DNA of 32,000 nucleotides from an uncultured archaeon (GTDB lineage: Archaea; Micrarchaeota; Micrarchaeia; Micrarchaeales; CABMGC01), in the NCBI GenBank assembly GCA_963704435.1, contig OY969902.1, forward strand, positions 90,001 through 122,000. The letters are read 5' to 3'. The position numbers and the translations under genes are program-made. The notes below the pieces were generated by a model. The model was not told where the DNA came from and ran no database searches. It worked only from the letters and a program-made list of their open reading frames with translations. Every line of letters begins with the position of its first letter. Within the stretch, counting starts at the first letter, position 1. Of this stretch, positions 1 to 19,465 are shown piece by piece.

Positions 1-2
1 TT

Positions 3-231: not shown

Positions 232-762
232 ATGGCAACGAAAACAAATCAAAACACCAGAGCTCTGGCTAACGTTCTGATTGAAAGGGCCGAGCTGTGG
301 CATATGTTCAAGGGGAATCAGGAAATATTTATCGCGGAATTGGGAACTACTGGAAAAATGAAGCGGTTTGAGGATTCTGTCCATTACGACAAGCCATGCG
401 AGCACGAAGGCAGCATCAACATCGGAAAGGGTACGGAGATCGGCGCGCGTGTGGCGATAGGCTCGAACGTTTCCATAGGCAAAAACGTGCGTATCGGAGA
501 AGGTGCGGTGATTTGCGATGGCGTGACAATAGGCAGCGGGGCGACGATCGGCGCAGCCGCATTCCTAGGATATTCTTCGATAGCCAATAAGGATTCCTCC
601 ATTGGCGCACTCGTCAGATTCGGGCGTTTTGCGGTATTATACGAAGGCTGCCGCGTGGGGGACGGCGCTCAGATAGGTTATCATGCGCTAGTGCGCGAGG
701 ATGTGGCCTCGCTGGGATGGATTCCTAATAATCATGATTTGCAGCGCAAAACTGAGATCTAA
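232..762 (+). CDS. Hexapeptide-repeat (LbH) family protein, probably an acyl/acetyltransferase-like protein
   Basis: The 176-aa ORF has consecutive [LIV]-G-x4 hexads (INIGKGTEIGARVAIGSNVSIGKNVRIGEGAVICDGVTIGSGATIGAAAF), typical of left-handed beta-helix transferases. Confidence 0.7.
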   Translation: MATKTNQNTRALANVLIERAELWHMFKGNQEIFIAELGTTGKMKRFEDSVHYDKPCEHEGSINIGKGTEIGARVAIGSNVSIGKNVRIGEGAVICDGVTIGSGATIGAAAFLGYSSIANKDSSIGALVRFGRFAVLYEGCRVGDGAQIGYHALVREDVASLGWIPNNHDLQRKTEI

Positions 763-839
763 AGTGCCATTTATTCTGGCAACATTTAAATCTTCCAAAA
801 ATTAAGGAGCATCTGTGATTCTTGGTTCTGGGTGAAGAA

Positions 840-1586: not shown

Positions 1587-2363
1587 ATGGAAAAACACGC
1601 GCTGCAATTAGAAAAACTTGGAAAAGAAATAACGCAAGGAGCATACCAAGAGGGATTGATAAGAACCTGGTACAGGGACAAGCCTGAAGGTTTTACTCTA
1701 GCAAGCGGCCTGTATAGCCCGCTCTACATTAACTTAAGGTTGATTTCTAGCGTTCCGAGCGGCAGCGCAGAACTTTACAGAAAAGCCGGAGAGGCGGTAG
1801 GACTGATGCTTGAAAATGCAGGTTTCGCGCCTGATGGAAAACATAGACTTGTCGGAGTGGCCATGGCGGGCATACCCCTCGCCAATGCAGTTACATTGAA
1901 CAGGGGAATCCCCTCGCTGTATACTCGAAAACTGCCCGAAGACGTCAAGACCCCGGAAGACGTAGACGCATACATGCACGCGCACGGTCAAAAAGCGCTC
2001 GTCGAAGGGGATTTTGAATCAGGAAACATACTGGCAATCGTGGATGATCTAGTAACCACCTTTGGAAGCAAGGCATTAGCAATAAGTCAGGTAAAGCGGG
2101 AAGCCGAGCAGAGAGGCATTACTGATTTAACTCTAAAGGATATCGTAGTACTGTTCGACAGGGAGCAGGGCGGTGCTCAAAAGGCGGCGGAGATGGGCTA
2201 CACCCTTCATGCGCTGGTTCCTTTCTCAAGCAAGGGCATTCACTGGTTGAAAGACAGTCTGACCCCGGTGGAGTATCGGACAATAGTAGATTACCTGCAA
2301 AATCCAAAGGCATATCAAGACAAAAAAGTGCAGGAGCATCTAAAAAATATGTCTAGGACATAA
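1587..2363 (+). CDS. pyrE: Orotate phosphoribosyltransferase-like (type I PRTase)
   Basis: It has the PRPP-binding loop ILAIVDDLVTTFGSKA, the N-terminal FTLASGLYSPLYINLR block typical of OPRTases, and adjacency to the pyrF-like gene. Confidence 0.7.
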   Translation: MEKHALQLEKLGKEITQGAYQEGLIRTWYRDKPEGFTLASGLYSPLYINLRLISSVPSGSAELYRKAGEAVGLMLENAGFAPDGKHRLVGVAMAGIPLANAVTLNRGIPSLYTRKLPEDVKTPEDVDAYMHAHGQKALVEGDFESGNILAIVDDLVTTFGSKALAISQVKREAEQRGITDLTLKDIVVLFDREQGGAQKAAEMGYTLHALVPFSSKGIHWLKDSLTPVEYRTIVDYLQNPKAYQDKKVQEHLKNMSRT

Positions 2364-2477
2364 TCTAGAGCAGGCTTATAAAACGTGAGCACCAATCAAT
2401 GTAGCAGCGCCTGAGTGGCACAATTAAAAACCTTTCAGGCGAAATAAGTAGTATAACAGTTATATCGGCGCGTCCTT

Positions 2478-2900
2478 ATGGCTGAAAAGAACAAGCTACT
2501 CGCAGTGATAAGAGTCCGCGGAACCGTGAAGGTGCGGCACACCATAGCCGAGACGCTAATCCGCCTCAGGCTCAAGCGCGTGAACAACCTCGCGCTCGTG
2601 ACCGCGAGCCCAGGATACAGGGGCATGGTCGACAAGGCCAAGGACTTCGTGACCTTCGGCGAGATAGACGAGAAGACGCTCGCTAAGCTCTTCGAGAGCA
2701 AGGGCATAGAAGCCAAGGCGGCTGACGTGAAATCGCTCATGGAGGGCGAGAAGAACGTGAAGGACCTCGGCATAGCCATGCCGATAAGGATGCACCCTCC
2801 GAAGCACGGCTATGAGGGCATAAAGAGGGGCTACAACCAGGGCGGCGCGCTGGGCAACAGGGGCGCGGACATAAACGAGCTTATAGCTCGCATGCTGTGA
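2478..2900 (+). CDS. rpl30: 50S ribosomal protein uL30 (L30P)
   Basis: LAVIRVRGTVKVRHTIAETLIRLRLKRVNN is the classic archaeal L30 N-terminal signature. The gene overlaps the uL15 start by 4 nt (GTGA). Confidence 0.9.
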   Translation: MAEKNKLLAVIRVRGTVKVRHTIAETLIRLRLKRVNNLALVTASPGYRGMVDKAKDFVTFGEIDEKTLAKLFESKGIEAKAADVKSLMEGEKNVKDLGIAMPIRMHPPKHGYEGIKRGYNQGGALGNRGADINELIARML

Positions 2901-3304
2901 TAATCGTGGTAGTTCGAGTCAAGAAGAACAGGAAGTACTTCGGAAGCAGGAGCTGGGGCGCGGGCAACATAAAGAACGCCAGGGGCGCCGGCGACCGCGG
3001 AGGGGTCGGCCGCGGCGGAAGGAAGCACAAGATGTCCTACTACTGGGTCTACGACCGCGAGAGCACCCACAGCGAGGTGGGGTTCGTGCCCTACAGGAGG
3101 AAGAGGCTCGGCGAGATCGACCTCGGCGAGATATCCAAGCGCGCCGAGAAGGCCGGCGGGCACAAGCCTGTGCTGGAGCTGAAGGGCTACAAGGTCCTCG
3201 GCGACGGCAAGCTGTCTGCGGCCGTCGTCGTGAAGGCCAGCGGCTTCACCAAGACCGCCCACAGGAAGATAACCGAGGCCGGCGGAGAAGCGGTCAAGCT
3301 CTGA
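2897..3304 (+). CDS. rpl15: 50S ribosomal protein uL15 (L15P)
   Basis: KKNRKYFGSRSWGAGNIKNARGAGDRGGVGRGG is a Gly/Arg-rich uL15 N-terminus. The GTG start is coupled to the uL30 stop, in conserved L30-L15 order. An alternative GTG lies at 2906. Confidence 0.9.
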   Translation: MIIVVVRVKKNRKYFGSRSWGAGNIKNARGAGDRGGVGRGGRKHKMSYYWVYDRESTHSEVGFVPYRRKRLGEIDLGEISKRAEKAGGHKPVLELKGYKVLGDGKLSAAVVVKASGFTKTAHRKITEAGGEAVKL

Positions 3305-3371
3305 ACTGCCGCCACAGCGGCATAATACTTATTTGCTTACAGTCTATTCCACTGCGGTCACGAGTGTTGGG

Positions 3372-4529
3372 ATGCGGCGTTACAACATTGCTTTCTACTC
3401 CGATACGTACCTCCCTGCGACGGACGGCGTCGTGACCTCGATGCTCGACTTCAGGAAGGAGCTCGAGAGGCGCGGGCACAGGGTCTTCATATTCGCGAGC
3501 CGGCGCGGCATCGCCCGGAATGGCGCCTCCCCCGAAAAGGACGTGTTCCTCTATCCCGGCGTGGGCTTCAAGCCGTACCCGCAGTACAGCGTCGCCGTGT
3601 TCCCTTTCTATTCGCTGCTCAAGCAGAGGTCCATCGACATCGACATAGTGCACGCCCAGACGCCATTCATCATGGGCATCAACGGGATGCTCATGGCCAA
3701 GCTGGGCAAGTACCCGCTCGTGGGCTCCTTCCACACGATGGTAAACAGCAAGGCGCTTGAGGCGTACTACCCCAGGAACAGGGCGCTCAAGAGGTTCACA
3801 TCGACCTACCTGTGGAAGTACACGAAGTTCTTCTACAGGAAGTGCGATCTTACGATAGCGCCGTCGCATGCGATAGAGGACCTGCTCGAGCGCCACGGGA
3901 TAAACGACACCGCATTGGTCCCGAACGGCGTCGACCTTAAGCGGTTCAATCGCCGCATCCGCGGCGATGGCGTGCGGAGGAGGCTCGGCATAAAGGACAG
4001 CGATAAGGTCGTGCTCTACCTCGGCAGGATCAGCAGGGAGAAGAAGATCGAGGTGATGCTCCGCGCCGCGAAGAGGGTGCTGCGCTCCAGGAAGGACGTC
4101 GTCTTCGTCATAGGCGGGGCGGGGCCCGCGCAGGACTACTACAGGCGCATGGCGCGCCGCCTCGGAGTTCTGGACAGGGTCAGGTTCACCGGGTTCGTGG
4201 AGGGCAAGGCGCTGCCAGGCCTGTACGCGTCGAGCGATGCGCTCTGCCTCCCGTCGACGTTCGAGACCCAGGGGATCGTCTCGCTAGAGGCGATGGCGTT
4301 GGGCAAGCCGGTGGTCGGCGCGGACTACCTTGCGCTGCGCGAGATAATACAGAACGGCAGGAACGGGGAGAGGTTCGCGGCGGGAGACGACGCGGGCTGC
4401 GCCAGGAAGATAGAAAAGGTTTTAAATAATTGCGGGGCTTATACAAAGGATGCAGTCAGCACTGCACGCAAGTTCTCAGTGGAGAAGGCAACTGACAGGC
4501 TGCTGAAGGCTTATGATTCTGTATTCTAG
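3372..4529 (+). CDS. Glycosyltransferase, GT4 family (GT-B fold, group 1)
   Basis: N-terminal IAFYSDTYLPATDGV; C-terminal VLYLGRISREKK and PSTFETQGIVSLEAMALGKPVV (the E-x7-E region of GT4 enzymes). ATG 3372 is preferred over the TTG at 3333. Confidence 0.85.
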   Translation: MRRYNIAFYSDTYLPATDGVVTSMLDFRKELERRGHRVFIFASRRGIARNGASPEKDVFLYPGVGFKPYPQYSVAVFPFYSLLKQRSIDIDIVHAQTPFIMGINGMLMAKLGKYPLVGSFHTMVNSKALEAYYPRNRALKRFTSTYLWKYTKFFYRKCDLTIAPSHAIEDLLERHGINDTALVPNGVDLKRFNRRIRGDGVRRRLGIKDSDKVVLYLGRISREKKIEVMLRAAKRVLRSRKDVVFVIGGAGPAQDYYRRMARRLGVLDRVRFTGFVEGKALPGLYASSDALCLPSTFETQGIVSLEAMALGKPVVGADYLALREIIQNGRNGERFAAGDDAGCARKIEKVLNNCGAYTKDAVSTARKFSVEKATDRLLKAYDSVF

Positions 4530-4631
4530 AAGGTCGTTTAACTGAGCGGAGAACAAACCAACGAAATCAAGGAAGGTAGCAGTGCGGCGGGAGCGCCTAC
4601 GCCCGCGCCGGAAGGCGCGCCCCAGACCGGG

Positions 4632-5204
4632 ATGCAGCTGCTCAGGACCCAGATAGCCGAGGAGAAGGCGAAGCGCGCCGACCTCGTGGGTCAGTTCAAC
4701 AGGGTCAGGAACAAGCTCAGGTACAAGCAGGTGGAGCATGAGGCGCTGGCCAGGCTGCTCGCATCCGCGCCGCAGGAGGGGGGCCACAACGTAGGCCGCC
4801 TGAGGAGGATGAAGGAGAGCATAGAGTTCAGGATCGCCACGGAAGCCACGACCCTCAATGCCGAGAGGGAGCTGATAAAGCACCTGGGCGAGGTGAACGG
4901 CGAGCTCGAGGAGGCGCTCAAGGCCTACAGGTCCAGGAGGAAGTCCGAGCTGGTGGCCAAGGACATAGAGGAGCTCAAGCAGAGGTTCGACGAGCTCAGG
5001 AAGCAGATAGCGGAGTCCGACGGCAGGCTCGACGGCCTCTACGGCCGCCTGCGCGAGGAGACCGGGTGGGGCGACAACAGGTCGTCGTCAGCGGCCAAGA
5101 AGAAGCACGTGAAGCAGCAGGAGCCTCTGGAGATAAGCCTCGAGGACATCGCCACGATAAAGAGCAAGAAGCACAACGGCGACGAGAAGACTGACGGTGT
5201 TTGA
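4632..5204 (+). CDS. Coiled-coil protein of unknown function
   Basis: The 190-aa sequence is E/K/R/L-rich and heptad-like (LRTQIAEEKAKRADLVGQFNRVRNKLRYKQ...EELKQRFDELRKQIAESDGRLDGLYGRL). Its stop directly abuts the TTG start of the next gene. The frame is open back to 4542 but has no canonical start codon there. Confidence 0.6.
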   Translation: MQLLRTQIAEEKAKRADLVGQFNRVRNKLRYKQVEHEALARLLASAPQEGGHNVGRLRRMKESIEFRIATEATTLNAERELIKHLGEVNGELEEALKAYRSRRKSELVAKDIEELKQRFDELRKQIAESDGRLDGLYGRLREETGWGDNRSSSAAKKKHVKQQEPLEISLEDIATIKSKKHNGDEKTDGV

Positions 5205-6520
5205 TTGAGGATAACCTTCTACGGAGCGGCCGGGGAGGTCGGCCGGAGCTTCGTGCTCATAGAGAGCGGCGACACCAGGGTGGCGCTCGACGCGGGGGTG
5301 AAGCTCGGGGAGGTCGAGGAGCACCCGACCATAGACGACGCTGACCTCAAGGGCATCGACGGCGTCATACTCTCGCACGCGCACCTGGACCACTGCGGCT
5401 ACGTGCCGCACCTGTACGCCAGCGGCTACACGGGCTACCTCTACGCGACCAAGCCCACGCTGGAGCTGCTCAACGTGGTCATGACCGACTACGTCAACAT
5501 CTCGAAGCCGAAGGACGTCACGAAGGAGAGCCTGCAGAAGGTCGTCCAGCACTTCAGGATAGAGGAGTATTTCAAGGAGTTCAAGATAAAGGGAATGACG
5601 ATACGGCTGCTTCCGGCGGGGCACATACTCGGGAGCGCGATGATAGAGGTCAGCGACGGCAAGGAAAAGCTCCTCTACACCGGCGACATAAATCTCAAGA
5701 CGACGAAGCTGCTTGACGCGGCTTACACCGCGGACCTGAACGCCAACATACTGATAACGGAGAGCACGTACGGGGGGAAGAGCGACACGTTCCAGCCCGA
5801 GAAGGTCGTGCTAGGCAAGATGGTGGCGGACCTGAACGAGACGCTCAAGGCCGGGGGAAAAGTGATAATGCCGGTCTTCGCCGTAGGGAGGGCGCAGGAG
5901 GTGCTCTTCATACTTGACGACTACATAAGGTCAGGCGTGCTCCCGAAGGTGCCGATATACGTCGATGGCATGGTCAACAAGGTCGTGCGCATCTACAGGC
6001 ACAACGTCATATGCTGCAAGGAAGAGGTGCAGAAGCGCATACTCATGAGCGAGGACGATCCGTTCAAGAGCAAGAATTTCTACGTCGTGGGCGGAAGGCA
6101 GCAGAGGGCGAAGGTCCTCAAGGAGACGGGCGCGTGCATAGTGGTCACGACCAGCGGAATGCTCAAGGGCGGCCCGGTCGTCAAGTACCTAGAGAAGTTC
6201 GCGGGCGACTCAAACAACAAGATGATACTGGTCGGATACCAGGCGGTGGGCACGCCGGGAAGGGCGCTCAGGCCGGCACCAAGGAGATAGAGATAGGCGA
6301 TTCCAAGAAGAAGATAAAGATCGGGATGAAGGTGGCGTTCTACCACTTCTCTGCTCACGCGGACAGGCCGCAACTCCTCAAGCTGATAAGCAAGGTGAAG
6401 GGACTGAAGACCATATTCATAGACCACGGCGAGGAGAACAAGTCGCGCGAGTTCTACGACGAGCTGAAGCAGAAGTACGACGTCAGGCTTCCTGTCCTGT
6501 CGACCCCGTACGACGTGTGA
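5205..6520 (+). pseudogene. Metallo-beta-lactamase/beta-CASP ribonuclease (aCPSF2-like), copy 1, interrupted by a 1-nt frameshift
   Basis: It has the HAHLDH MBL motif and beta-CASP blocks, and is colinear with the intact paralog at 11955-13274. The reading frame ends at TAG 6288-6290, but the conserved C-terminus (QAGTKEIEIGD...FSAHADRPQLLKLISKVKGLKTIFIDHGEE...LPVLSTPY) continues in the -1 frame from 6269. Both halves appear as separate ORFs in the track (5205-6290 and 6011-6520). Confidence 0.85.
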
Positions 6521-6541
6521 GTTCAGATGCCCGCTGCAAAT

Positions 6542-6552
6542 CGGGCTTAATA
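6542..6552 (+). repeat. Left copy of the 11-bp direct repeat CGGGCTTAATA bounding the AT-rich island
   Basis: It is identical to 11447-11457. Extended leftwards the match is 16 nt with one mismatch (CAAA[T/G]CGGGCTTAATA). It coincides with the change in composition. Confidence 0.65.
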
Positions 6553-6571
6553 GAGGTTGTTCACAAAGTCA

Positions 6572-6605
6572 GACTTTTTAAACACATTCGGGACTTTTTA
6601 AACAC
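6572..6605 (+). repeat. Two direct copies of GACTTTTTAAACAC (island left subterminal repeats)
   Basis: Copies lie at 6572-6585 and 6592-6605, a 20-bp period. The same motif, in the same orientation, recurs three times at the right end of the island. Confidence 0.7.
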
Positions 6606-7377
6606 TTTTTTGCACTATTGGCGGATAGAAAAGAGAGATTATTAAAAAGTGATTCCACCTACTTTCAGTTCCAACAACAAAGTAAATATCTCTCTGTTGC
6701 ATCCAATCAAAATATCTATCACGTACCTTTCCAAAAGCGAGTTCGTCATTTCCAAGTTTTGCTCTTTCTGTCCTAAAAAGTTGTATCATTTCCCAATCTT
6801 CGCACATCAAATCGTGTCCACTGCATCTTTCATCGTTACAAGTAAAGCGATAACCCATCCAATAGGGTATTTTGTCTAAAGGAGATTTATATTGTTCTCC
6901 AAAGAGCATCTTCTGGGTTCCTTCTATTAGTTCCTTCTCCCAATCTCTGCAACTCTCAATTGGTTTTTTGTAGAAGTCAATAATCTTGGGCTTAATAATT
7001 CCTATTGTCTGCCTTTGCGAATCTCTTAGGTCTTCTAATTCCTCAATAGATTGATTCAGCTTAGGCAGAAGTAACCCTTTTCTATTGTCCCATTCAGGAC
7101 TTTTAAAAGAAGCCAATACCCTTATCGTTTTATCTATTACTTTGTGGCTTTCCTGTCTAAGGTATTTATCTTTGTGCGGTTCGGCCTCAACTTCTATGAC
7201 GTCAAATTTCTTGAAATGTTTATCCATAGGTAGTTTTCTATACATTATAGGAAACATTCGTATCCATTCATTAGTATCGAGATTTATGCCAGCTACACAA
7301 ACAGTCTCCTCATATTTTTCACTAAGGTTTGGATATGTTTTCGCTATTATTGCGATTTTCTTTTTTTGATATGTCAT
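6598..7377 (-). CDS. Hypothetical protein with a CX4CX2HX3C motif, co-operonic with the DUF488 gene
   Basis: The 259-aa ORF has uniform AT-rich codon usage and a 4-nt ATGA overlap with the upstream gene 7374-8174. It contains RFTCNDERCSGHDLMCEDWE, a possible zinc knuckle. I recognise no family. Confidence 0.7.
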   Translation of the reverse strand: MTYQKKKIAIIAKTYPNLSEKYEETVCVAGINLDTNEWIRMFPIMYRKLPMDKHFKKFDVIEVEAEPHKDKYLRQESHKVIDKTIRVLASFKSPEWDNRKGLLLPKLNQSIEELEDLRDSQRQTIGIIKPKIIDFYKKPIESCRDWEKELIEGTQKMLFGEQYKSPLDKIPYWMGYRFTCNDERCSGHDLMCEDWEMIQLFRTERAKLGNDELAFGKVRDRYFDWMQQRDIYFVVGTESRWNHFLIISLFYPPIVQKSV

Positions 7378-8174
7378 AAATCTATTACCTTAAATCCATC
7401 TTCGATGAGCCTTTTCTTAATTATGCTTCTATGACATTTTGTTATGTCCTTTTCAAAACACATAATTACTGTGGGTCTGACGTGGGCTAATCCTTCAAGA
7501 TCAGTCAAATACTCTTTTGCTTGTGGGGAGGAAAGCCATTTTGAATAATTTTCAAAAAACTCCTCGTAATTCCCTTCATTCCAAAGTTTATGCCGAAGTT
7601 CCCTTGGAGAACCTAATTCTTGAAAATGCCGATACACTATACCCTTTTCTTTCAAAGCGGTACTAAGTGCGGATTTTGAGTAGCCATTCTTCCTACTTAG
7701 TGCCAATTCCCTAACATCTATCAGGCATCCTATTTGATGCTCTTTCAAAATTTGAATGAGTTCTTGTAATTTTTTACCCTCGTAACCTATCGTAAATATC
7801 GTTACGCCCTTCTTTTCGAGGTACCAGTAGGTTGTGGCACCTTCTTTGCGTCTTTTGAGGCCGATTTCATTTTCTAATTGAGTTACCCATTTATTGTTAG
7901 GTACTGTCTGTTCCATATTTAGTTTTTTCCTAATTTCTTGCCAAGTAAATCCAGACTCTCGCGCGTTAAGAAGTTCCGTTAATTTTGACTTAAACTCAGT
8001 ATAGCTCAGGTCATACGTTTTCTTTACCAACAAACCTTCCGTAGTTATTTCTGTATTTAGGATTTCGCCTTCTTTCCATTTTAGCTTCTCTACCTCTTCA
8101 GGCGGAACTGTAAGTATCCACTTTGCATATTCCTTTCCCTTTAATTTGCGGGTAAGATGTCTTTGTAAGCGCAT
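7374..8174 (-). CDS. AbrB-like / winged-helix / DUF488 three-domain protein
   Basis: The N-terminus KEYAKWILTVPPEEVEKLKWKEGEIL resembles SpoVT/AbrB swapped-hairpin motifs. The middle region GFTWQEIRKKLNMEQTVPNNKWVTQLENEIGLKRRKEGATTYWYL looks like a wHTH. The C-terminus TIFTIGYEGKKLQELIQILKEHQIGCLIDVRELALSRKNGYSKSAL...GIVYRHFQELGSP...MCFEKDITKCHRSII matches DUF488 (PF04343) signature blocks. Confidence 0.8.
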   Translation of the reverse strand: MRLQRHLTRKLKGKEYAKWILTVPPEEVEKLKWKEGEILNTEITTEGLLVKKTYDLSYTEFKSKLTELLNARESGFTWQEIRKKLNMEQTVPNNKWVTQLENEIGLKRRKEGATTYWYLEKKGVTIFTIGYEGKKLQELIQILKEHQIGCLIDVRELALSRKNGYSKSALSTALKEKGIVYRHFQELGSPRELRHKLWNEGNYEEFFENYSKWLSSPQAKEYLTDLEGLAHVRPTVIMCFEKDITKCHRSIIKKRLIEDGFKVIDL

Positions 8175-8183
8175 GATTTCTAT

Positions 8184-8273
8184 TTAGGCGCCTAAATGTT
8201 TATATATCTTCCTATTAGGCGCCTAAACCTATTTATATCTTTAGGCACCTAATAATATTTGTTAGGCGCCTAA
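8184..8273. promoter_or_regulatory. Array of four 12-bp palindromes TTAGGCGCCTAA (putative operators) interleaved with TATA boxes in a divergent promoter region
   Basis: Copies lie at 8184-8195, 8215-8226, 8241-8252 (TTAGGCACCTAA, one mismatch) and 8262-8273. TTTATATAT at 8198-8206 is about 27 nt upstream of the minus-strand ATG at 8174, which fits a leaderless mRNA. ATTTATATC lies at 8231-8239, upstream of the plus-strand gene. Confidence 0.6.
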
Positions 8274-8294
8274 CAAATAGGACAGTGTATAAGT

Positions 8295-9491
8295 ATGGAT
8301 ACAAGAAGACAAAAAGCTGAACAGATCGCTAAGACAGAAACAATAAAGAAAGAAGGCAGGGGTTGGGTAGTTCCCTCTCAAAGCGGAAAGGGCTACTACA
8401 ATGTAGTGCAAGAAGGCACAGGTCTTGCCTGCACCTGCCCTGACTTTCAGCTAAGAGGTCAGCCCTGCAAGCACGTGCTTGCGGTTCAGATAGTGGTTCT
8501 GCGATGGTTCGACAAGAAAGGTAAACCCGTAATGGAAGTAAAGAGAGTGTCCTACCCTCAGAATTGGCACGCCTACAATGCCTCACAGATAAACGAGCAA
8601 GACCTATTTATGAAGCTGTTAGCTGACTTATGCCAAGATATAGAAGAGCCACTATACAAATTCGGAAGACCACAACTGCCACTAAAAGATATGGTCTTTG
8701 CGAGTGCCTTAAAGGTCTATTCGACCTTTAGCCTAAGAAGGTTTATGTCCGATATGCGAGCCTCTAAAGAAAAGGGCTTTGTAACTAAGGTCTCCTCTTA
8801 CAGTTCAGTAAGCAACTATATGAGAAGTGAGGAGCTAACGCCTATCTTGCAGAGCCTTATTTCCTTATCTTCTATGCCACTTAGGAGCGTAGAAACGAAG
8901 TTTGCCATAGACAGCACAGGGTTTAGAACTACACGATTTAACGACTATTGCAGAGAGAAGCACAACACAGAGAAACAGCATCAATGGGTTAAGGCTCATA
9001 TCTGCACAGGTGTTAAGACCAATATCATTACAGGGATAGAGGTAACGGAAGGCACAGGAGCGGACAGCTTACAGTTCATACCTCTTGCAGAAAGAACGCA
9101 TCAGAATGGCTTTAACATAGAGGAGATGAGTGCAGATAAGGCTTATTCAAGCAGAGACAACCACGCATACATAGCACAGATAGGTGGAACGCCTTTTATC
9201 CCTTTCAGAAAAGGAGCGACTGGCAAGCCAAGAGGCAGTAACCATATCTGGAGAAAAATGTATAACTACTTTGTCTATAACAAAGATGAGTTCTTGGAGC
9301 ATTACCATCTCAGAAGCAACGTGGAAAGCACAAATAATATGATTAAGGCAAAGTTTACAGATATAGTTAGAAGTAAGGATAAGATAGCACAGACCAACGA
9401 GGTATTATTAAAGATTTTATGTCATAATATTTGTGTAGTTATTCAAGAGATGCACGAGTTGGGAATAGAACCTAACTTCTTAGAGGGATAA
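8295..9491 (+). CDS. SWIM zinc-finger / DDE (IS4/IS5-like) transposase
   Basis: SWIM motif CTCPDFQLRGQPCKHVLAV. DDE candidates are FAIDSTGF, MSADKAYSSRDN and YHLRSNVESTNNMIKAKF (a Y-x2-R-x3-E-x6-K type C-terminal motif). Confidence 0.8.
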   Translation: MDTRRQKAEQIAKTETIKKEGRGWVVPSQSGKGYYNVVQEGTGLACTCPDFQLRGQPCKHVLAVQIVVLRWFDKKGKPVMEVKRVSYPQNWHAYNASQINEQDLFMKLLADLCQDIEEPLYKFGRPQLPLKDMVFASALKVYSTFSLRRFMSDMRASKEKGFVTKVSSYSSVSNYMRSEELTPILQSLISLSSMPLRSVETKFAIDSTGFRTTRFNDYCREKHNTEKQHQWVKAHICTGVKTNIITGIEVTEGTGADSLQFIPLAERTHQNGFNIEEMSADKAYSSRDNHAYIAQIGGTPFIPFRKGATGKPRGSNHIWRKMYNYFVYNKDEFLEHYHLRSNVESTNNMIKAKFTDIVRSKDKIAQTNEVLLKILCHNICVVIQEMHELGIEPNFLEG

Positions 9492-9493
9492 AT

Positions 9494-10321
9494 ATGTCTA
9501 ATCACACTTTAATTATCGGAGACTGCTCCAATATGAACGAAATTAAGAGTGGTAGCGTTCAACTTGTATGCACCTCTCCACCTTACTTCAATGCTCCTTT
9601 TGATTATAAGAAATTGTATAAGAGCTATGACCATTACTTAGAGATGTTAAGGAATGTAGCAAAAGAATTGTTTAGAGTAATAGCAGATGGCAGGATTGTT
9701 GCTCTGAATATAGATGATATGTTAGTAGATGGCGAGAAGTTCCCTATAATAGCAGATGCAACTAAAATCTTTCTTGATGCTGGATTCAGATACAGGGATA
9801 AGATAACGTGGAAAAAGCCAGATGGCTATTTGAGGATAAGCAGAAGGAGTGGAGTTATGATACAGCATCCATACCCTATGTATTTCTATCCTGATAACCT
9901 TCTTGAAAGCATAATAATATTCCAGAAGGGAAAGTTTGATTATAAATCAGTATCAGATGAGCTTAAAGAGAAATCTAAGATAGACATAGGCGAGTTTCAA
10001 AAGAAAGACTGGTATATGACTTTATGGTCTATGACAAATGTATTGCCTAATAGTGATTTGGAGAAGGGTATAGCGGCTTATCCAGATGAATTGGCATATA
10101 GAATAATCAAACTGTTTTCTTTTGTTGGTGATACTGTCTTAGACCCTTTCACTGGCTCTGGAACGACTATGAAGATAGCTCGTAAATTAGGAAGAAATAG
10201 TATTGGTATAGAAATGAAAAAAGACTTAATACCAATAATCAAGAGAAAGACAGGATTTGATGGTCAAGAAAAGCTATTAAATAATGATGACACTTTAGAT
10301 ATAGTAATCAGAAAGAAATAG
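9494..10321 (+). CDS. DNA methyltransferase, beta-class N4-cytosine/N6-adenine family (N6_N4_Mtase)
   Basis: Motif IV TSPPYFNAPFDY lies near the N-terminus and motif I VLDPFTGSGTTMKIARKLGRNSIGIE near the C-terminus, the beta permutation. SPPY is more typical of m4C enzymes than DPPY. The gene starts 2 nt after the transposase stop. Confidence 0.9.
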   Translation: MSNHTLIIGDCSNMNEIKSGSVQLVCTSPPYFNAPFDYKKLYKSYDHYLEMLRNVAKELFRVIADGRIVALNIDDMLVDGEKFPIIADATKIFLDAGFRYRDKITWKKPDGYLRISRRSGVMIQHPYPMYFYPDNLLESIIIFQKGKFDYKSVSDELKEKSKIDIGEFQKKDWYMTLWSMTNVLPNSDLEKGIAAYPDELAYRIIKLFSFVGDTVLDPFTGSGTTMKIARKLGRNSIGIEMKKDLIPIIKRKTGFDGQEKLLNNDDTLDIVIRKK

Positions 10322-10328
10322 TGTCATT

Positions 10329-11384
10329 ATGAAGATAACAGCTAAGATAATCAAAGGCATAAATTATAGTCCATTACTTTGTAGAAAACTAAGCAGTTAC
10401 AAGTTTAGTGAGCTTGAAAAGGCACTCTCTAAAGATGCTACATTTTTCCTTGACATAGACAAGCAAAACAAGATAGCGGTAAGCTGGTGGGTATCAGCTA
10501 AAAGAACGAGGTCTTATCCTTATGCAAGAGTGTATGACTCTTATGGTTTTTCTGGTAAAAAACTTACTATAATACCCATAGTAAAAGATGAAGGCTATGG
10601 TGGAGATAGAGACTTCTTGCAATGGGATACAATATCTCTTATGAGCTTACTTAAAATCTACGTCGTAATAGCATACTATAAAACTGCTTCTAAAAGCTCA
10701 AGATATGAGAGTAAGATTACAAATCAACGATTTGATATGCCATTTATTAAAGACCAGATTAAAGAACTTTTGAAATATCAAGATGACGCTCTACACTGGA
10801 ATTTAGACCAAATATCAAAGATACAAAAGATAGGTAATAATGCCATAAAATCTTATGAAGCACTATCTAAAAAACTTGGAGTAAAAATGCACTCTAAAGA
10901 GAAAGCAGAAAGAAGGATACACGAACTTATGAAGGATAAGGAGATGTTTCTTAAAACCTCAAGAGCGTTAGCAGTGATGGCCCAGAGCAGAGAGCGTTCT
11001 GTAACACATAAAGCTGAAAGTGTAGATGGGTCAAAATCAAGCCTTACTATCAGCAACTATCTTGGTGGCAACTACTACTTTACCTCTGATGAAGCAAGAC
11101 TAAGAAAGGGAAGGTTGTTTTTGGTAGAAGCAAAGAATACAAAGGAGAATAGGCTACCAAATAGAGAGGACATTAAAGACGGACTAATAAGAATGATTTT
11201 ATTCACTAATTTGGAGAAAGTAAGTATAAAATCTAAGGTTTATCCGATAACTCCTTTATTGAAACTAACCTCTAAAAAGAAATTTGTTATTGGAAAGAGA
11301 GACGCATTAGTGCTAAATATACTCAAAAAAGAAGCTAAATTAAATGGATTTAAAGTAGAAGTAAATGGTAAGCTCCTTAAATAG
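10329..11384 (+). CDS. Putative type II restriction endonuclease (PD-(D/E)xK candidate)
   Basis: The 351-aa ORF starts 7 nt downstream of the MTase. YFTSDEARLRKGRLFLVEAKNTKE fits a D...ExK nuclease core. The call rests on position and motif only; I recognise no family. Confidence 0.55.
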   Translation: MKITAKIIKGINYSPLLCRKLSSYKFSELEKALSKDATFFLDIDKQNKIAVSWWVSAKRTRSYPYARVYDSYGFSGKKLTIIPIVKDEGYGGDRDFLQWDTISLMSLLKIYVVIAYYKTASKSSRYESKITNQRFDMPFIKDQIKELLKYQDDALHWNLDQISKIQKIGNNAIKSYEALSKKLGVKMHSKEKAERRIHELMKDKEMFLKTSRALAVMAQSRERSVTHKAESVDGSKSSLTISNYLGGNYYFTSDEARLRKGRLFLVEAKNTKENRLPNREDIKDGLIRMILFTNLEKVSIKSKVYPITPLLKLTSKKKFVIGKRDALVLNILKKEAKLNGFKVEVNGKLLK

Positions 11385-11391
11385 TTAAATT

Positions 11392-11444
11392 GACTTTTTA
11401 AACAAAATCAGGACTTATTAAACAGAATTTGACTTATTAAACAA
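11392..11444 (+). repeat. Three direct copies of GACTT[T/A]TTAAACA[A/G] (island right subterminal repeats)
   Basis: Copies lie at 11392-11405, 11412-11425 and 11431-11444, a 19-20 bp period. They have the same orientation as the left-end copies and directly abut the right direct repeat. Confidence 0.7.
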
Positions 11445-11446
11445 AG

Positions 11447-11457
11447 CGGGCTTAATA
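11447..11457 (+). repeat. Right copy of the 11-bp direct repeat CGGGCTTAATA
   Basis: It is identical to 6542-6552 and is followed by GTTTATATAGG, a TATA-like box. Confidence 0.65.
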
Positions 11458-11690
11458 ACAACGTTTATATAGGTAGAACGCCATATTACTATCACTAGTA
11501 AGGGAGAAGGATAACGGAATTTACGTCAAAAATAAGACAACTTATTTTCTTAAATTCCTGGAAGTCGGGACCCGCTGACGCGGCCTCGTCTCTCCGGACT
11601 CGGTAGGGATTCGCAAGGATTCCTGCAAAACCAATCCAAAATCCCAGTCAGTAAAGCTAGAGAAAACAAAAAACAAAAAGAAGTGAAAAG

Positions 11691-13274
11691 ATGACTGAGA
11701 ACGTGACAGAAGGCAGAATGGATAATGAGAACCGCAGGAAAGTCCCATGGAACATATACCGGGACGAGCCTGGTTCGGAAAGGCGGCAGGATCAGAACGC
11801 CAAGAGGCGCGATTCCGCACCGCAGCAGAGGCCCGCGAGGTTCAACTCGCAGAGGCATCAGCAGCGCCACGAACAGCGCCCCAAACAGCATTTCGTGCAG
11901 AGGCCGGCGCCAGTTCCTGTTAGGAACACGCCAAGGCCGAAGGCAAAGGAGCGCATGACTGTGACTTTCTACGGCGCAGCAGGAGAGGTCGGCAGGAGCT
12001 GCGTGCTGGTAGAGAGCAAGAACACAAGGCTTATCCTTGACGCCGGCATAAAGCTGGGTGAGGTCGAGGAGCGCCCCGTGATAGAGGACAGCGAGCTGAA
12101 GCACATCGACGCGGTGGTGCTTTCGCACGCCCATATGGACCACTCGAGCTATCTCCCGCACTTCTTCTCCAAGGGATATACGGGGCCCGTCTACGCGACG
12201 AAGCCCACGTTCGAGCTGGTCGACATAATGACCAAGGACTACATGCACATCTCCAATCCAGAGGGCGTGACCAAGGACAGCGTGAAGCTGCTCTTCAAGC
12301 ACTGCAGGCCCGTGGAGTACTACAGGGAGTTCAGGGTGAAGGACTTAAGGATTCGCCTGCTCCCGGCGGGACACATACTCGGGAGCGCGATGATAGAGGT
12401 CAGCGACGGCAGGGACACGCTGCTGTACAGCGGGGACATCAACATGAGGAGCACGAAGCTCTTCGATCCCGCATACGACAAGAACCTGAACGCTAACGTG
12501 CTGATAATAGAGAGCACCTACGGGGGCAAGGCCGACGTCTTCCCTTCGGACAAGGACGTGCTCAACAAGCTCGCCGCAAGCGTGAAGGAGACGATAAACG
12601 CAGGGGGCAAGGTCATAATACCCAGCCTCGCGGTGGGGAGGGCGCAGGAGATACTGTTCACGCTGGACGACTACATCAGGTCGGGCATAGTGCCTAAGAC
12701 CCCCGTATACGTCGATGGAATGATTGGCAAGGTCCTCCGTATCTACAAACGCAACGTGCGCTACTGCAAGGACGAGATCCAGAGGAGAGTCAAGACCAAG
12801 AACAACGATCCGTTCGAGAGTAAGAACTTCACGATAATCGGGAGCAGGCAGCAGAGGGCGAAGGTGCTCGCGAGCGACGGCGCCTGCATAGTCGTGACCA
12901 CGAGCGGCATGCTCAAGGGAGGGCCGGTAATCCAGTACCTCGAGAAGTTCGCGGGCGACTCGAACAACAAGATAATCCTCGTCAGCCACCAGGCTGAGGA
13001 CACCCCCGGCAGGCAGCTGCTTAACGGATCCAGGGAGGTCGTGTTCGGGGATGAGAAGCTGAAGCTGAAGATCGAGGCGAAGGTCGAGTACATCCACATG
13101 TCCGGCCACGCGGACAGACCGCAGCTCCTCAAGCTGGTGAGCAAGGTCAAGGGCCTGAAGACCGTGTTCGTCGAGCACGGCGAGGAGGTCAAGGCGAAGG
13201 AGCTCTACGAGACCCTCAAGAACAGGTACGACGCGAGGCTTCCTGTCCTGTCGACCCCGTACGAGATAAAGTGA
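11691..13274 (+). CDS. Metallo-beta-lactamase/beta-CASP ribonuclease (aCPSF2-like), copy 2, intact, with a possible Arg/Gln-rich N-terminal extension
   Basis: HAHMDH motif, LLPAGHILGSAMIEV, ESTYGG, GRAQE, VVTTSGMLKGGP, HMSGHADRPQLL. By eye it is roughly two-thirds identical to copy 1 over the full length. The catalytic core starts at MTVTFYGAAGEVGRS (ATG 11955). Codons 1-88 are a low-complexity R/Q/P-rich region, so the start site is uncertain. Confidence 0.9.
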   Translation: MTENVTEGRMDNENRRKVPWNIYRDEPGSERRQDQNAKRRDSAPQQRPARFNSQRHQQRHEQRPKQHFVQRPAPVPVRNTPRPKAKERMTVTFYGAAGEVGRSCVLVESKNTRLILDAGIKLGEVEERPVIEDSELKHIDAVVLSHAHMDHSSYLPHFFSKGYTGPVYATKPTFELVDIMTKDYMHISNPEGVTKDSVKLLFKHCRPVEYYREFRVKDLRIRLLPAGHILGSAMIEVSDGRDTLLYSGDINMRSTKLFDPAYDKNLNANVLIIESTYGGKADVFPSDKDVLNKLAASVKETINAGGKVIIPSLAVGRAQEILFTLDDYIRSGIVPKTPVYVDGMIGKVLRIYKRNVRYCKDEIQRRVKTKNNDPFESKNFTIIGSRQQRAKVLASDGACIVVTTSGMLKGGPVIQYLEKFAGDSNNKIILVSHQAEDTPGRQLLNGSREVVFGDEKLKLKIEAKVEYIHMSGHADRPQLLKLVSKVKGLKTVFVEHGEEVKAKELYETLKNRYDARLPVLSTPYEIK

Positions 13275-13335
13275 AGCCCTGCGCGGGCCGCCTTTCTGGC
13301 GTGCCCTCGCATCGGCCTTTACGAAAAATTGCATC

Positions 13336-13764
13336 TTATTGGGAGATCATCACTTTCAGCAATTGACTGGTTGCAATAGGGTCTCCTCTTTTCAGCACCA
13401 GCAGGCTTTCCTTGGCGCGGTCCTCTCCTCTTCGAGTAAGTGTGAACGGGCCGTTATACAAATAATTGTCGGGCGCCTGCGATTTTATATCGCCGCCAAA
13501 CTGCCTCTCAAATAGATAATCAGCAACAACCGTGCTAACGAGTCCCGACGCATCGCGCTGGATCGGTATTTCAACGTTGAAAGCGTCTAGGATTTTTTCC
13601 GAATTCAACAGGTATATCCAGTAAGTGATCTGATTTACGCTCGATACGTTCCCGTCTGCGCATGCAACGCCTATCACGGCATCGATTACTTGCCCCGGCC
13701 AGATCTCCTCCTTTGACCTCGCCATCAAGGCGACACTATTTACAATGGCTTTACCATCGTCCAT
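13336..13764 (-). CDS. Hypothetical protein
   Basis: The 142-aa ORF has balanced composition in an otherwise non-coding gap. I recognise no motif. Confidence 0.5.
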   Translation of the reverse strand: MDDGKAIVNSVALMARSKEEIWPGQVIDAVIGVACADGNVSSVNQITYWIYLLNSEKILDAFNVEIPIQRDASGLVSTVVADYLFERQFGGDIKSQAPDNYLYNGPFTLTRRGEDRAKESLLVLKRGDPIATSQLLKVMISQ

Positions 13765-13914
13765 CCCAGCACCAATGCAACATAATCAAAATGCGTATTT
13801 ATGACTTGTGACTCGGAAAATTTATGCGAGTCAAAGATTCCGCTCCTACTTTGCTTGCAGGCTCCGCCTGACTCCCTTTTATTACTTCATAATCAAATAG
13901 AATATGATGATCTT

Positions 13915-14238
13915 ATGGCAGATGAGCAGAAACAGATGAACCTGAACTTCGTTGATACTAAGCCGATCTTCGCTGATGAAATCGCATTGGCATTCAAGGT
14001 AAATGCGTCCAAGGACAGCAAGGGCGTTATTGAGAAGGAGGGTCACGTGACCTTCATCTTTGTCGACGCGATGAAGCGCCAGGCCGTCGGCGAATTCGTG
14101 GTGAGCAAGAACACCGCGAAGGCCCTCGTCAAGGTGCTGTCAGATAGCATAGTCAACCTCGAGAAGCAGCTGGCAGACAAGTCCATGCCGAAGCCTCCTG
14201 AGATCAAGACCACGTCAGATACACGCATGTACCGGTAA
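13915..14238 (+). CDS. Hypothetical small protein (weakly DUF3467-like)
   Basis: MADEQKQMNLNFVDTKPIFADEIALAFKVN...HVTFIFVDAM...AVGEFVVSKNTAKALVKVLSDSIVNLEKQL. The internal ATG at 13915 is preferred over the track start at 13801, because the upstream codons look non-coding. The family assignment is tentative. Confidence 0.5.
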   Translation: MADEQKQMNLNFVDTKPIFADEIALAFKVNASKDSKGVIEKEGHVTFIFVDAMKRQAVGEFVVSKNTAKALVKVLSDSIVNLEKQLADKSMPKPPEIKTTSDTRMYR

Positions 14239-14295
14239 GGGCTCCGGCATCCGCCGAGAAAAGCGACGGGATGCAAAACATTTTAATAATCTGGA

Positions 14296-15093
14296 ATGCA
14301 GGTTCTAGATATGCACACGATAAAGCGATACGAGTCCGAGGCCGCCAGGACGCAGGTCATAATGGCCGTGGGCGGATCCGGGAAGCGCATGGGAATATCC
14401 TACCCAAAGTCCCTCATAAAGCTCGGCGACAGCACGCTGCTCGACAGGTGCGTCAACATGTATGTCAACTGCGGCTTCCGCAGCTTCGTGTTCCTGCTGG
14501 GGCATAACGACAAGGAGATAACTAAGCACATAGACAGCAGCGATTATTCGGGCGCATCGATAACCAAGTCATATGACTACGCGCAGGGGATAGGCCGAGC
14601 GAAGGCCCTGAAGAGCGCCCTTGTGAACGGGAAGATTGACAGGTCGAAGAGGCTGATGCTCGCATTCCCTGACGATGTCTTCACCGACAACTCATTCCCG
14701 ATGAAGGTGCTGCTGGAGCACCTGCACGCCGTCAAGGCGTTCGGCGCGCTCGCGAGCCTGGTCGTCGCGAAGGCGCAGAGGTACGCTTACGGGGTCGCGT
14801 GGGCCGACGACAGGAGCATGATAACTAAATTCGAGGAGAAGCCGCTCGTGCCGCTGCTCACCTCTACTGGCGTTCCGATAATCGAGCCGGAGGCTTACCA
14901 CTACGTCGAGGAGCTCATCGACCTGGACAAGGGCGGCCCTGTGGACGAGCACCCGCTGTACCTGCGCCTGGCCGAGGAGGGCAGGATCTACGCGATCACG
15001 ATACCCCCCGACACATGGATATCGATCAACACCGCGAAGGAGCTCGAGCAGGCGCAGAGGTTGGTGGATTCGGGCGTTCTTCCAATGAGGTAG
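14296..15093 (+). CDS. Sugar-phosphate nucleotidyltransferase (NTP_transferase family)
   Basis: It has an N-terminal VIMAVGGSGKRMG...PKSLIKLGDSTLLD (G-x-G-x-R) pyrophosphorylase loop and a Rossmann-like layout. An alternative start at ATG 14311 is about 27 nt from a TTTTAATAAT box. Confidence 0.8.
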   Translation: MQVLDMHTIKRYESEAARTQVIMAVGGSGKRMGISYPKSLIKLGDSTLLDRCVNMYVNCGFRSFVFLLGHNDKEITKHIDSSDYSGASITKSYDYAQGIGRAKALKSALVNGKIDRSKRLMLAFPDDVFTDNSFPMKVLLEHLHAVKAFGALASLVVAKAQRYAYGVAWADDRSMITKFEEKPLVPLLTSTGVPIIEPEAYHYVEELIDLDKGGPVDEHPLYLRLAEEGRIYAITIPPDTWISINTAKELEQAQRLVDSGVLPMR

Positions 15094-15148
15094 TGCTTCA
15101 TTGCCTGCGTGGTGCTTTTTAGCCTTTCCTTACAAATATTGTGTTTGT

Positions 15149-15221
15149 GCGAGTGTAGTCTAGCCTGGTAGGACGTAGCCTTGCCAAGGCTATAACCCGG
15201 GTTCAAATCCCGGCGCTCGCA
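15149..15221 (+). tRNA. tRNA-Gly (anticodon GCC)
   Basis: Manual cloverleaf: acceptor GCGAGTG/CGCTCGC (one G-U pair), D arm GTCT-AGCCTGGTA-GGAC, anticodon arm TAGCC-TTGCCAA-GGCTA, T arm CCGGG-TTCAAAT-CCCGG, discriminator A. CCA is not encoded. Confidence 0.9.
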
Positions 15222-15232
15222 GGGTAATAATC

Positions 15233-15691
15233 ATGGCTAAGAAGAAAGATAAAAGCGCAAGTCCGTACGTTGGCCACTATAGGAAGGCGACCCTTTTCGC
15301 ATTGGCCGCCACCGCGGTCTCGGTGATCGTCGCGGCATACCTCTACACGACACCACTACACGGCCATCTCGCAAGATATCCTTTGCTGGTTGCGGTGACG
15401 TTCAGCTTGATATGCGCTGTCAGCGCCTACCTGTGGAAGCGCCCTCCGCGCAACTTAACTCTGGTGCACGTGAAGCAGTTCTTCCAGGCTTTCGTGATAT
15501 TCGAGGCGCTTTATTACGTCGCGATGTTCGTTGGGCTCCAGCTCCTGCCATCGCTGCACCACTACGCTGCCATGGTCTTCGACCCTGGTTTCATGACCCT
15601 GTCCATCCTGCTCAGCGTGGGCGGCTACTACGTAAAGCTCATAATATACGAGTACCTGAATGCGCGGAAGGCTAGGAAGGCGAAACCGTGA
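15233..15691 (+). CDS. Integral membrane protein (about 4 TM segments), unknown function
   Basis: Hydrophobic stretches include LFALAATAVSVIVAAYLY, LLVAVTFSLICAVSAYLW, FQAFVIFEALYYVAMFVGLQLL and FMTLSILLSVGGYYV. The stop overlaps the next gene's GTG start (GTGA). Confidence 0.6.
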   Translation: MAKKKDKSASPYVGHYRKATLFALAATAVSVIVAAYLYTTPLHGHLARYPLLVAVTFSLICAVSAYLWKRPPRNLTLVHVKQFFQAFVIFEALYYVAMFVGLQLLPSLHHYAAMVFDPGFMTLSILLSVGGYYVKLIIYEYLNARKARKAKP

Positions 15692-16068
15692 AGTGCCTCT
15701 CGCTCAGGCAGCCGTACGCCGAGCTCGTCGTGCTTGGGAAGAAGACTATCGAGCTCAGGAAATGGAACACCCATTTCAGGGGAAGGTTCCTCGTGCACGC
15801 GTCCAAGACGGTCGACTCCAGGGCGTGCGCGCGCTTCAGGATTCGGCCCGAGACGCTCGCAACCGGAGCCATAATCGGGAAGGCGACCCTCTTCTGGGTG
15901 AAGAAGTACGGAAGCAGGAAGGAGTTCGTCGCTGACGCGCGGAGACACCTTGCGAGATACGAGGAATACGGCACCTCGCGGTACGCATTCCTGCTCAAGG
16001 ATCCTATTAGGTTGAGGAGGCCCATTTCCTACAGGGGAAGCCTCAACTTCTTCAACGCAGACATATAA
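15688..16068 (+). CDS. ASCH domain (PUA-like fold) protein
   Basis: MKCLSLRQPYAELVVLGKKTIELRKWNTHFRGRFLVHASK matches the ASCH N-terminal signature (S-[IL]-[RK]-Q-P-[WY]-A...G-x-K-x-x-E-x-R). Confidence 0.8.
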   Translation: MKCLSLRQPYAELVVLGKKTIELRKWNTHFRGRFLVHASKTVDSRACARFRIRPETLATGAIIGKATLFWVKKYGSRKEFVADARRHLARYEEYGTSRYAFLLKDPIRLRRPISYRGSLNFFNADI

Positions 16069-16084
16069 TCAGTGCGGTCCTCTC

Positions 16085-17200: not shown

Positions 17201-17226
17201 CTTAGATCACGCGCCCGCGCCGGCCG

Positions 17227-19454: not shown

Positions 19455-19465
19455 TTAGGGGGTGT

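Follow-up and report, generated by a model that had tools for sequence, protein, structure and literature searches.

A probable cargo-carrying relative of IS903 in a Micrarchaeota genome, with asymmetric multi-site ends and archaeal insertions beside TATA boxes

What kind of element is the AT-rich island that separates two beta-CASP genes in the genome of an uncultured Micrarchaeota archaeon? The island lies in a 32,000-nt stretch of contig OY969902.1 (assembly GCA_963704435.1, positions 90,001 to 122,000 of the forward strand), hereafter the window, and an initial annotation had noted a puzzling combination of features: a DDE transposase gene inside, an 11-bp direct repeat at both junctions, and short repeats (iterons) just inside them, all in one orientation and thus in a geometry seemingly foreign to such a transposase. 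Our analysis points to the segment at 6553-11448 as a probable 4,896-bp unit transposon of the cut-and-paste type, where we infer the transposition chemistry itself (cut-and-paste versus replicative). It would belong to a family of distant, cargo-carrying IS903 relatives with an IS5-type DDE transposase, the archaeal clade of which inserts next to promoters. We assign this reading a probability of about 0.88.

Exact look-up of the protein encoded by beta-CASP copy 2 retrieved two public contigs of the same Micrarchaeota strain, one of 839 kb (L003) and a 5.8-kb scaffold (L004), in both of which beta-CASP copy 1 is directly followed by copy 2. The empty site predicted from the window, ...GCAAATCGGGCTTAATAACAACGTTTATATAGG..., occurs verbatim in both, the junction in L003 reading ...GCTGCAAATCGGGCTTAATAACAACGTTTATATAGG..., and L003 is 100% identical to the window over 1-6552 and 99.99% identical over 11442-22189. 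Comparison with the empty allele of this otherwise identical strain delimits a 9-bp target-site duplication, GGCTTAATA, which is present twice here (6544-6552 and 11449-11457, no strand assigned) and once in L003 and L004. The discrete, horizontally acquired mobile island that had been proposed is therefore backed by exact boundaries and a real empty-site allele, along with a drop in GC content from ~0.58 to ~0.35 over 6.5-11.5 kb and five open reading frames (ORFs) that nearly fill the interval. The 11-bp repeat CGGGCTTAATA does occur at 6542-6552 and 11447-11457, and its match stretches to 16 nt with one mismatch, but the meaningful duplication is 9 bp long: the CG beyond it, and the 16-nt match, arise because the host CAAATCG left of the target chances to resemble the CAAAGCG of the right tip of the element.

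Two further short contigs, recovered by exact look-up of the transposase, carry the same island. In both, the right junction is CTGGCTTAATA, so that only a 9-bp exact repeat remains there. The first (L001) equals window 6523-11478 with one mismatch and reaches exactly 30 nt beyond the element on either side (outside 6553 and past 11448), as would be expected of a k=31 assembly bubble formed with an empty allele present in that sample. The second (L002) covers the island only (window 6552-11451) and is a mosaic, with 100% identity from 6552 to ~9500, across the DuOB, DUF488 and transposase genes, 70-89% identity and frameshifted ORFs in the restriction-modification genes, and 95-100% identity again in the final 120 bp, a pattern that suggests exchange or decay of the cargo module. 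In addition, a protein-cluster listing names an 852,977-bp contig with a truncated transposase of 266 aa (P0124).

The ends themselves resolve the apparent conflict with the encoded enzyme. The iteron GACTTWTTAAACA is found on the + strand at 6572, 6592, 11392, 11412 and 11431, as annotated, and with up to two mismatches it has seven matches in the window against 0.89 expected, a count that no shuffle reached. However, not all copies share one orientation. A sixth copy, GACTTTGTGAACA, lies with two mismatches on the − strand at 6558-6570, and since it is the leftmost, terminal one, the two outermost copies are mutually inverted. They are embedded in imperfect 18-bp terminal inverted repeats with IS903-like termini, at odds with the view that this geometry is foreign to a DDE transposase. 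The left repeat, GAGGTTGTTCACAAAGTC (6553-6570, + strand), is a degenerate form of the consensus of the family, GGCTTTGTTnAAnAAGTC, with mismatches at tip positions 2-4, and holds the inverted iteron; the right repeat, GACTTATTAAACAAAGCG (11431-11448, + strand), ends in ...AAAGCT in L001 and L002, the right end reading CGCTTTGTTTAATAAGTC in the window copy and AGCTTTG... in L001. The 13-bp iteron corresponds to positions 6-18 of the 18-bp terminal repeat and recurs subterminally, while the GGCTT tip is confined to the terminal copies. On the left, two subterminal repeats, GACTTTTTAAACA (6572-6584 and 6592-6604, + strand), are inverted with respect to the terminal copy, a layout that we call I-end; on the right, the two subterminal repeats (11392-11404 and 11412-11424, + strand) are oriented like the terminal copy, a D-end.

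We then asked how far this organization extends. More than 7,000 transposase homologues of ~400 aa were scored, and 80 genomic, 36 viral-contig and 80 metagenome loci were fetched. A k-mer scan showed many loci to contain clustered repeats that recur several kilobases away, with shared termini GGCTTTG...CAAAGCC, more widely (G/A)GCTTTG...CAAAGC(C/T), and flanking 9-bp direct repeats. Searching for these termini with at most 2-3 mismatches delineated elements in 45/81 genome, 15/28 viral and 35/80 metagenome loci, 89 of them unique after removal of duplicates. These measure 2.8-8.4 kb, each exceeding its ~1.2-kb transposase gene, and their 9-bp duplications differ from site to site. A nested small insertion sequence (IS) made of the transposase gene alone was considered and rejected, inverted repeats within 300 bp of the gene scoring only at noise level (12-15 of 18) in 70 relatives. 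With its 4,896 bp and four passenger genes, the window element likewise falls outside the strict definition of an insertion sequence (transposition genes only, ~1-2 kb). The family ranges over DPANN archaea, Methanoperedens, Thermoplasmata, Acidobacteriota, Dehalococcoidia and viral contigs. Two members at different sites, L056 and L186, are 89% identical across their whole 4.36 kb, which indicates that whole units move. On the other hand, close transposase relatives otherwise share only the transposase gene, sometimes with the adjoining end, and carry unrelated cargo; the finding of wholly different cargo behind transposases 90-98% identical in protein (~91% in DNA) argues for frequent internal recombination and cargo exchange. 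Among the IMG/VR contigs (L096-L131), members with intact ends and 9-bp duplications lie on viral-classified sequences, mostly of high GC, and viruses or proviruses may be ferrying these transposons.

Across 178 family ends the consensus is (G/A)GCTTTG(T/C)NNAAWAAGTC. In the common layout, with the transposase gene on the + strand, the left sites start at 6, 24 and 44 in a single orientation, and the right end has two sites at −63 and −43 in the orientation of the left ones plus an inverted terminal site at −18. This arrangement (D,I) was found in 57/89 elements and its mirror image (I,D) in eight, the window element among them, so the transposase gene takes either orientation relative to the asymmetric ends. 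The 6/20/40 register of the left sites in the window recurs in L043 and L089. Subterminal sites differ from the terminal core of their own element at a mode of 2-3 positions of 13, as opposed to a mean of 6.5 against the cores of other elements, which suggests that one protein reads terminal and subterminal sites. The iterons are thus best described as putative protein-binding repeats that belong to the element ends, and their conserved asymmetric arrangement appears to be a new end architecture for an IS5-type transposase. We class the family among the IS903-type DDE transposons.

The family also bears on two other explanations of the repeats. An exact 11-bp direct repeat at both junctions with clustered direct repeats just inside them is what a site-specific integrative element would present, the 11 bp serving as att core and the iterons as arm-type recombinase sites. 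Yet none of the five ORFs gave a tyrosine or serine recombinase hit (four match other Pfam families and the fifth a PADLOC Type II restriction endonuclease), the exact repeat of the sister copy L001 measures no more than 9 bp, and the 89 relatives combine IS903-like termini and an encoded DDE transposase with unrelated 9-bp flanks that share no att core. As the iteron is, moreover, the inner part of a terminal inverted repeat, this reading is largely refuted and we consider it very improbable. Still harder to credit is a plasmid or replicon remnant with the iterons as replication-origin repeats. Their 13-bp length and 19-20 bp period do give them iteron-like spacing, but Pfam and PADLOC searches of the five island ORFs revealed no replication-initiator or other replication protein, the repeats occupy the two outermost parts of the element, their sequence changing between family members together with that of the terminal inverted repeats, and relatives are flanked by target duplications in chromosomes.

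The transposase gene (8295-9491, + strand) encodes an N-terminal SWIM zinc finger (Pfam, 2e-8) followed by an IS5-type DDE domain (DDE_Tnp_1, PF01609, 5.3e-20). Across 31 homologues, C46, C48, C58 and H60 of the finger (CxC...CxH), the residues D206, D281 and E344, and the Y337-R340-E344-K351 series are invariant. Residues 90-398 align with an IS903-type transposase from Klebsiella (25% identity, E 6e-15), the alignment taking in the IDSTG, SADxAY and Y..RS..E motifs. In IS903B, the inverted repeat is GGCTTTGTTGAATAAATC and the direct repeat, of 9 bp, is CTCAGATGC (PMC10569121). The family resembles IS903 and IS903B in a DDE_Tnp_1 transposase that retains the DDE residues and the Y-(2)-R-(3)-E-(6)-K signature, in terminal repeats that open GGCTTTGTT...AA (compare GGCTTTGTTGAATAAATC), in the 9-bp target duplication, and in a flanking target preference akin to ...N9-TRAAW. 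It departs from IS903 in a transposase only ~25% identical and extended by an N-terminal SWIM finger of ~90 residues, in a size of 2.8-8.4 kb with passenger genes rather than ~1 kb with the transposase gene alone, in two subterminal copies of the putative binding core per end in a conserved asymmetric layout, and in archaeal insertions precisely beside a B recognition element (BRE) and TATA box.

Several transposase-binding repeats per end, two ends with unequal site number, spacing or orientation, and cargo are features of Tn7 and phage Mu. The present family shares with them multi-site asymmetric ends and cargo, the likeness to Tn7 being limited to the ends. It differs in an unrelated transposase family, in a single IS5-type transposition gene with no TnsABC or MuB-type genes among the island ORFs, and in subterminal sites that keep one absolute orientation at both ends and are consequently inverted relative to the terminal site at one of them.

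Where, then, do these elements insert? The initial annotation had expected removal of the island to place a TATA box upstream of beta-CASP copy 2. Such a box indeed lies just outside the right junction, but it belongs to the host DNA, where both alleles have it, and is not created by removal: a BRE-like ACAACG (11458-11463) and the TATA box TTTATATA (11464-11471), on the + strand, point away from the element to beta-CASP copy 2, and are found in the empty allele as well. The host part of the window contains just four perfect TTTAWATA octamers, TTTATATA being one. Reconstructed empty sites of the archaeal clade yielded a one-sided motif, N9 / R-M-A-A-M-S / TTTAWATA, the hexamer of which has, by its sequence, the character of an archaeal BRE. 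Target counts were made on 55 unique archaeal-clade elements (104 flanks) and 34 bacterial-clade elements. Outward-pointing TTTAWATA with at most one mismatch occurred at offset 6 in 25/104 flanks, at offset 8 in four, and at other offsets in 0-2; with at most two mismatches, offset 6 accounted for 44 flanks over a background of ~2-3 per offset. A BRE-like hexamer followed by a TATA-like octamer, with the octamer starting exactly 6 nt beyond the duplication, is thus seen in 44/55 archaeal-clade elements, that of the window included, and in none of the 34 of the bacterial clade. Many of the targeted boxes have an ORF start 15-90 nt downstream, and either element end may abut the promoter (11 vs 11), with no orientation bias of the asymmetric ends. 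Mimicry by the element end, suggested by the TATA-like iteron TGTTTAATAAGTC, was discarded, as elements with the differing iterons TGCTCCTAAAGT, TGCACAAATAGTC and TGCCCGAAAACT keep the offset-6 TATA.

Two accounts of this fixed distance deserve weighing. One is a direct sequence preference of the transposase, in which an IS903-type motif has been extended to A/T-rich, bendable DNA with no involvement of transcription factors. IS903 prefers WTTYA-N9-TRAAW (PMC2577343), and its TRAAW beside N9 resembles the R-M-A-A-M-S hexamer, so the BRE-like part may be inherited from an intrinsic preference; the elements insert equally often in either orientation relative to the promoter (11 vs 11), and the property follows the transposase clade. 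Against it, only one side of the target carries the signal, where the expectation for a transpososome of two-fold symmetry is a palindromic preference; the signal spans 14 bp and coincides with a BRE and TATA unit, often with the 15-90 nt spacing to an ORF start; and it is independent of the iteron sequence of each element. On balance we give direct preference an even chance. The other, which we put forward tentatively and regard as possible rather than probable, is that the archaeal branch senses the promoter bound, and bent, by TBP and TFB, and integrates just upstream of it, as a DNA-transposon counterpart of Ty3-type tethering. Ty3, a eukaryotic long terminal repeat retrotransposon, uses an integrase, and experiments have demonstrated that it is tethered to TFIIIB. 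As in Ty3, insertions keep a set distance, to the nucleotide, from a TATA/TFB(Brf)-type promoter element and leave the promoter of the neighbour intact; the family differs in that the resemblance is one of sequence pattern alone, TBP and TFB entering as a hypothetical component. In the present set the TATA trait coincides with the transposase clade, host factor and lineage thus being confounded. If promoter sensing holds true, it would offer the defence cargo a 'safe harbour' beside host genes rather than inside them.

A different target rule may operate in the bacterial clade. In high-GC, apparently bacterial hosts (L049, L078, L083, L191, L195 and L202), the 9-bp duplication occupies the loop of G/C-rich palindromes such as CCCCTCC-N9-GGAGGGG. 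In a few loci, the right end of another element abuts the 9-bp duplication exactly (CAAAGCC-N9-GGCTTTG), at 3053-3090 and 8338-8375 in L065, 1985-2010 in L030 and 8530-8560 in L089; those of L065 are tandem copies with the common spacer GTTGGACCG. Such abutments could reflect insertion beside existing ends or tandem amplification. A general preference for targets resembling the element end was dismissed, since, beyond the true end abutments at 9 bp in L030, L065 and L089, the majority of flanks bear no likeness to an end.

Taken together, a mechanism can be proposed by reference to characterized DDE transposases. The transposase would bind the 13-bp core (positions 6-18) of each terminal repeat, cleave at the GGCTT-type tips, and join the ends to a target cut with a 9-bp stagger, repair of which would make the duplication. 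By analogy with other multi-site DDE elements, the extra core copies may recruit more transposase protomers and render the two ends structurally non-equivalent, the D-end offering three head-to-tail sites and the I-end a terminal site facing two inverted ones. In the archaeal clade, the staggered cut would fall immediately upstream of the BRE-TATA promoter, and it is because of this position that the core promoter of the neighbouring gene would survive. The transposon would lend mobility to defence genes, and the restriction-modification pair might in return stabilize the insertion through post-segregational killing.

Is the window copy still a mobile transposon? One could read it instead as a dead member of the family, the occupied allele being ancestral and the empty one produced by precise slippage deletion between the 9-11-bp repeats. 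In favour of this, the left tip has diverged at positions that hardly vary in the family, slipped-strand deletion is favoured by an exact repeat of 11 bp, a single genomic context was found, and the restriction-modification genes are broken in the variant L002. Conversely, all five ORFs of the window are intact, a GC content of 0.35 versus 0.58 argues for recent foreign origin, and the duplicated 9 bp are exactly what insertion by this family yields. The near-complete identity of the allele flanks (100% and 99.99%) dates the event, insertion or deletion, as recent. We regard a dead copy as unlikely, and the transposon reading as the better account of the locus.

Several points nevertheless tell against that account, or against parts of it. 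At positions 2-4 the window left tip, GAGGTTG, breaks with the GCTTTG that otherwise hardly varies over the 178 family ends; this end may be crippled, and the copy may be immobile or may have moved inefficiently. Tip conservation is itself partly an artefact, because elements were found by a search for termini with at most 2-3 mismatches. Look-ups of exact proteins brought up no second context and no excised or circular form of the window element, only L001 at the same site and L002 with the island alone. The transposase scores 131.5 bits with the NCBIfam IS5_2 equivalog model, under its 140-bit cut-off. We infer, moreover, transposase binding to the repeats, transposition chemistry and defence activities alike. 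The 'archaeal' and 'bacterial' clade labels were taken from the names of metagenome-assembled genomes (MAGs), flank GC and nearest transposase neighbours, and the sole apparent 'bacterial' TATA case, L023, has atypical GC and is probably a mis-binned MAG contig.

The passengers of the window element fall into two modules flanking the transposase gene. On the left, a gene for a DuOB-domain protein (6598-7377, − strand; Pfam DuOB 1.6e-5, below the curated cut-off) matches the PADLOC candidate defence gene PDC-M19B (1.3e-55), and a gene for a DUF488 protein with N-terminal beta-rich and winged-helix domains (7374-8174, − strand; Pfam DUF488 2.7e-30) matches PDC-M19A (2e-36). The two genes overlap and are co-oriented, their adjacency being what PADLOC expects of a PDC-M19 system, with defence function a candidate annotation; the same pair adjoins the transposase gene in L064. 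On the right, a Type II N4/N6 DNA methyltransferase gene (9494-10321, + strand; Pfam N6_N4_Mtase 4e-43, PADLOC MTase_II 4.7e-73) starts 3 nt past the transposase stop codon and is followed by that of a 351-aa Type II restriction endonuclease (10329-11384, + strand; PADLOC REase_II 6.2e-91), a protein with no match in Pfam or PDB sequence searches. These neighbouring, co-oriented MTase_II and REase_II genes are predicted from their PADLOC matches to form a Type II restriction-modification system.

Cargo of this kind is typical of the family. When 149 passenger ORFs from 43 elements were scanned against Pfam, restriction-modification domains prevailed (14 N6_Mtase, nine Eco57I, five HSDR_N_2 and five MmeI_Mtase), with four each of C5, D12 and N6_N4 methylases and Methylase_S; Vsr, MunI, Eco47II, EcoRI methylase, Mrr and HNH domains were also recorded. 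In L094, genes for a methyltransferase and a BglII-like enzyme come after that of a transposase 70% identical to the one of the window. A general linkage of restriction-modification genes to integrase and transposase homologues was described by Furuta, Abe and Kobayashi in 2010 (PMC2853133). As far as the accessible part of that survey goes, the elements analysed here are like its units in linking restriction-modification pairs to mobility genes and in forming insertion/deletion polymorphisms between close genomes, and unlike them in being a transposon family of their own, whose ends are defined, whose duplications have one length and whose insertions follow a target rule. Aloposons are unrelated, tRNA-site elements.

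Among the element classes that a 2019 survey listed as undetected in archaea are composite DNA transposons carrying passenger genes (PMC6563490). Cargo-carrying DDE transposons, long held to be missing from archaea, would here be represented by a very large family, and one that provides a concrete vehicle for moving defence systems between lineages, given cargo dominated by restriction-modification and other defence genes. The archaeal target rule, 6 nt upstream of a TATA box, is nucleotide-precise and testable in vitro with TBP and TFB; it could also serve promoter-proximal insertion in archaeal genetics and the computational marking of archaeal promoters. No literature description was found of the family, nor of the architecture of its ends, its cargo of restriction-modification genes or its targeting of TATA-proximal sites, in a search that was incomplete and did not include ISfinder, so an earlier description is possible.

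The divergent promoter region between the DUF488 and transposase genes contains four presumed operators, TTAGGCGCCTAA palindromes (8184-8273, no strand assigned), interleaved with two TATA boxes at 8199-8206 and 8230-8237. In L064, which has the same gene arrangement, TTAGACGTCTAA occurs three times upstream of the transposase gene (5903-5972). Repeated palindromes overlapping the promoter were seen upstream of the transposase gene in 10/76 loci, including L007, L055, L051 and L056, and other palindromes in this position are TCTAATTAGA, TTCTATATAGAA and TGTAGCTACA. They are probably operators of an element-encoded repressor. The DUF488 protein, which the initial annotation had proposed alongside the transposase as a possible binder of the iterons, has an AlphaFold model (pLDDT 88) with an N-terminal beta-rich domain, a winged helix that matches Rpc34 (probability 1.0) and the DUF488 domain. 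Its N-terminus gave no match in PDB and Pfam sequence searches; in relatives the beta-rich N-terminal domain is annotated as AbrB/MazE (PF04014). The protein is the obvious candidate to bind the TTAGGCGCCTAA operators, and not the iterons.

As for the host surroundings, a ribosome-binding GTPase encoded in the window has its best named homologues, ~70% identical, in Micrarchaeota. The further low-GC patches of the window at 13.3-14.0, 18.8-20.0, 22.0-22.8, 24.0-24.8 and 28.8-29.2 kb contain no family termini. The two beta-CASP genes are ~74% identical in DNA, and their tandem arrangement is incidental to the insertion, for which it is the promoter upstream of copy 2 that matters. Copy 1 is split into ORFs in overlapping frames (5205-6290 and 6011-6520, spanning window 5205-6520), and the same split in L003 (8420-9735) and L004 indicates a pseudogene or a gene that requires frameshifting. 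Copy 2 (11691-13274) is intact and bears an 88-residue Arg/Gln-rich N-terminal extension. From the targeted TATA box to its start there are ~220 nt (11472-11690), AT-rich over the first ~100 nt (11458-11560) and with no Rfam match to an RNA gene, which may constitute a long leader or harbour an unannotated small RNA or ORF.

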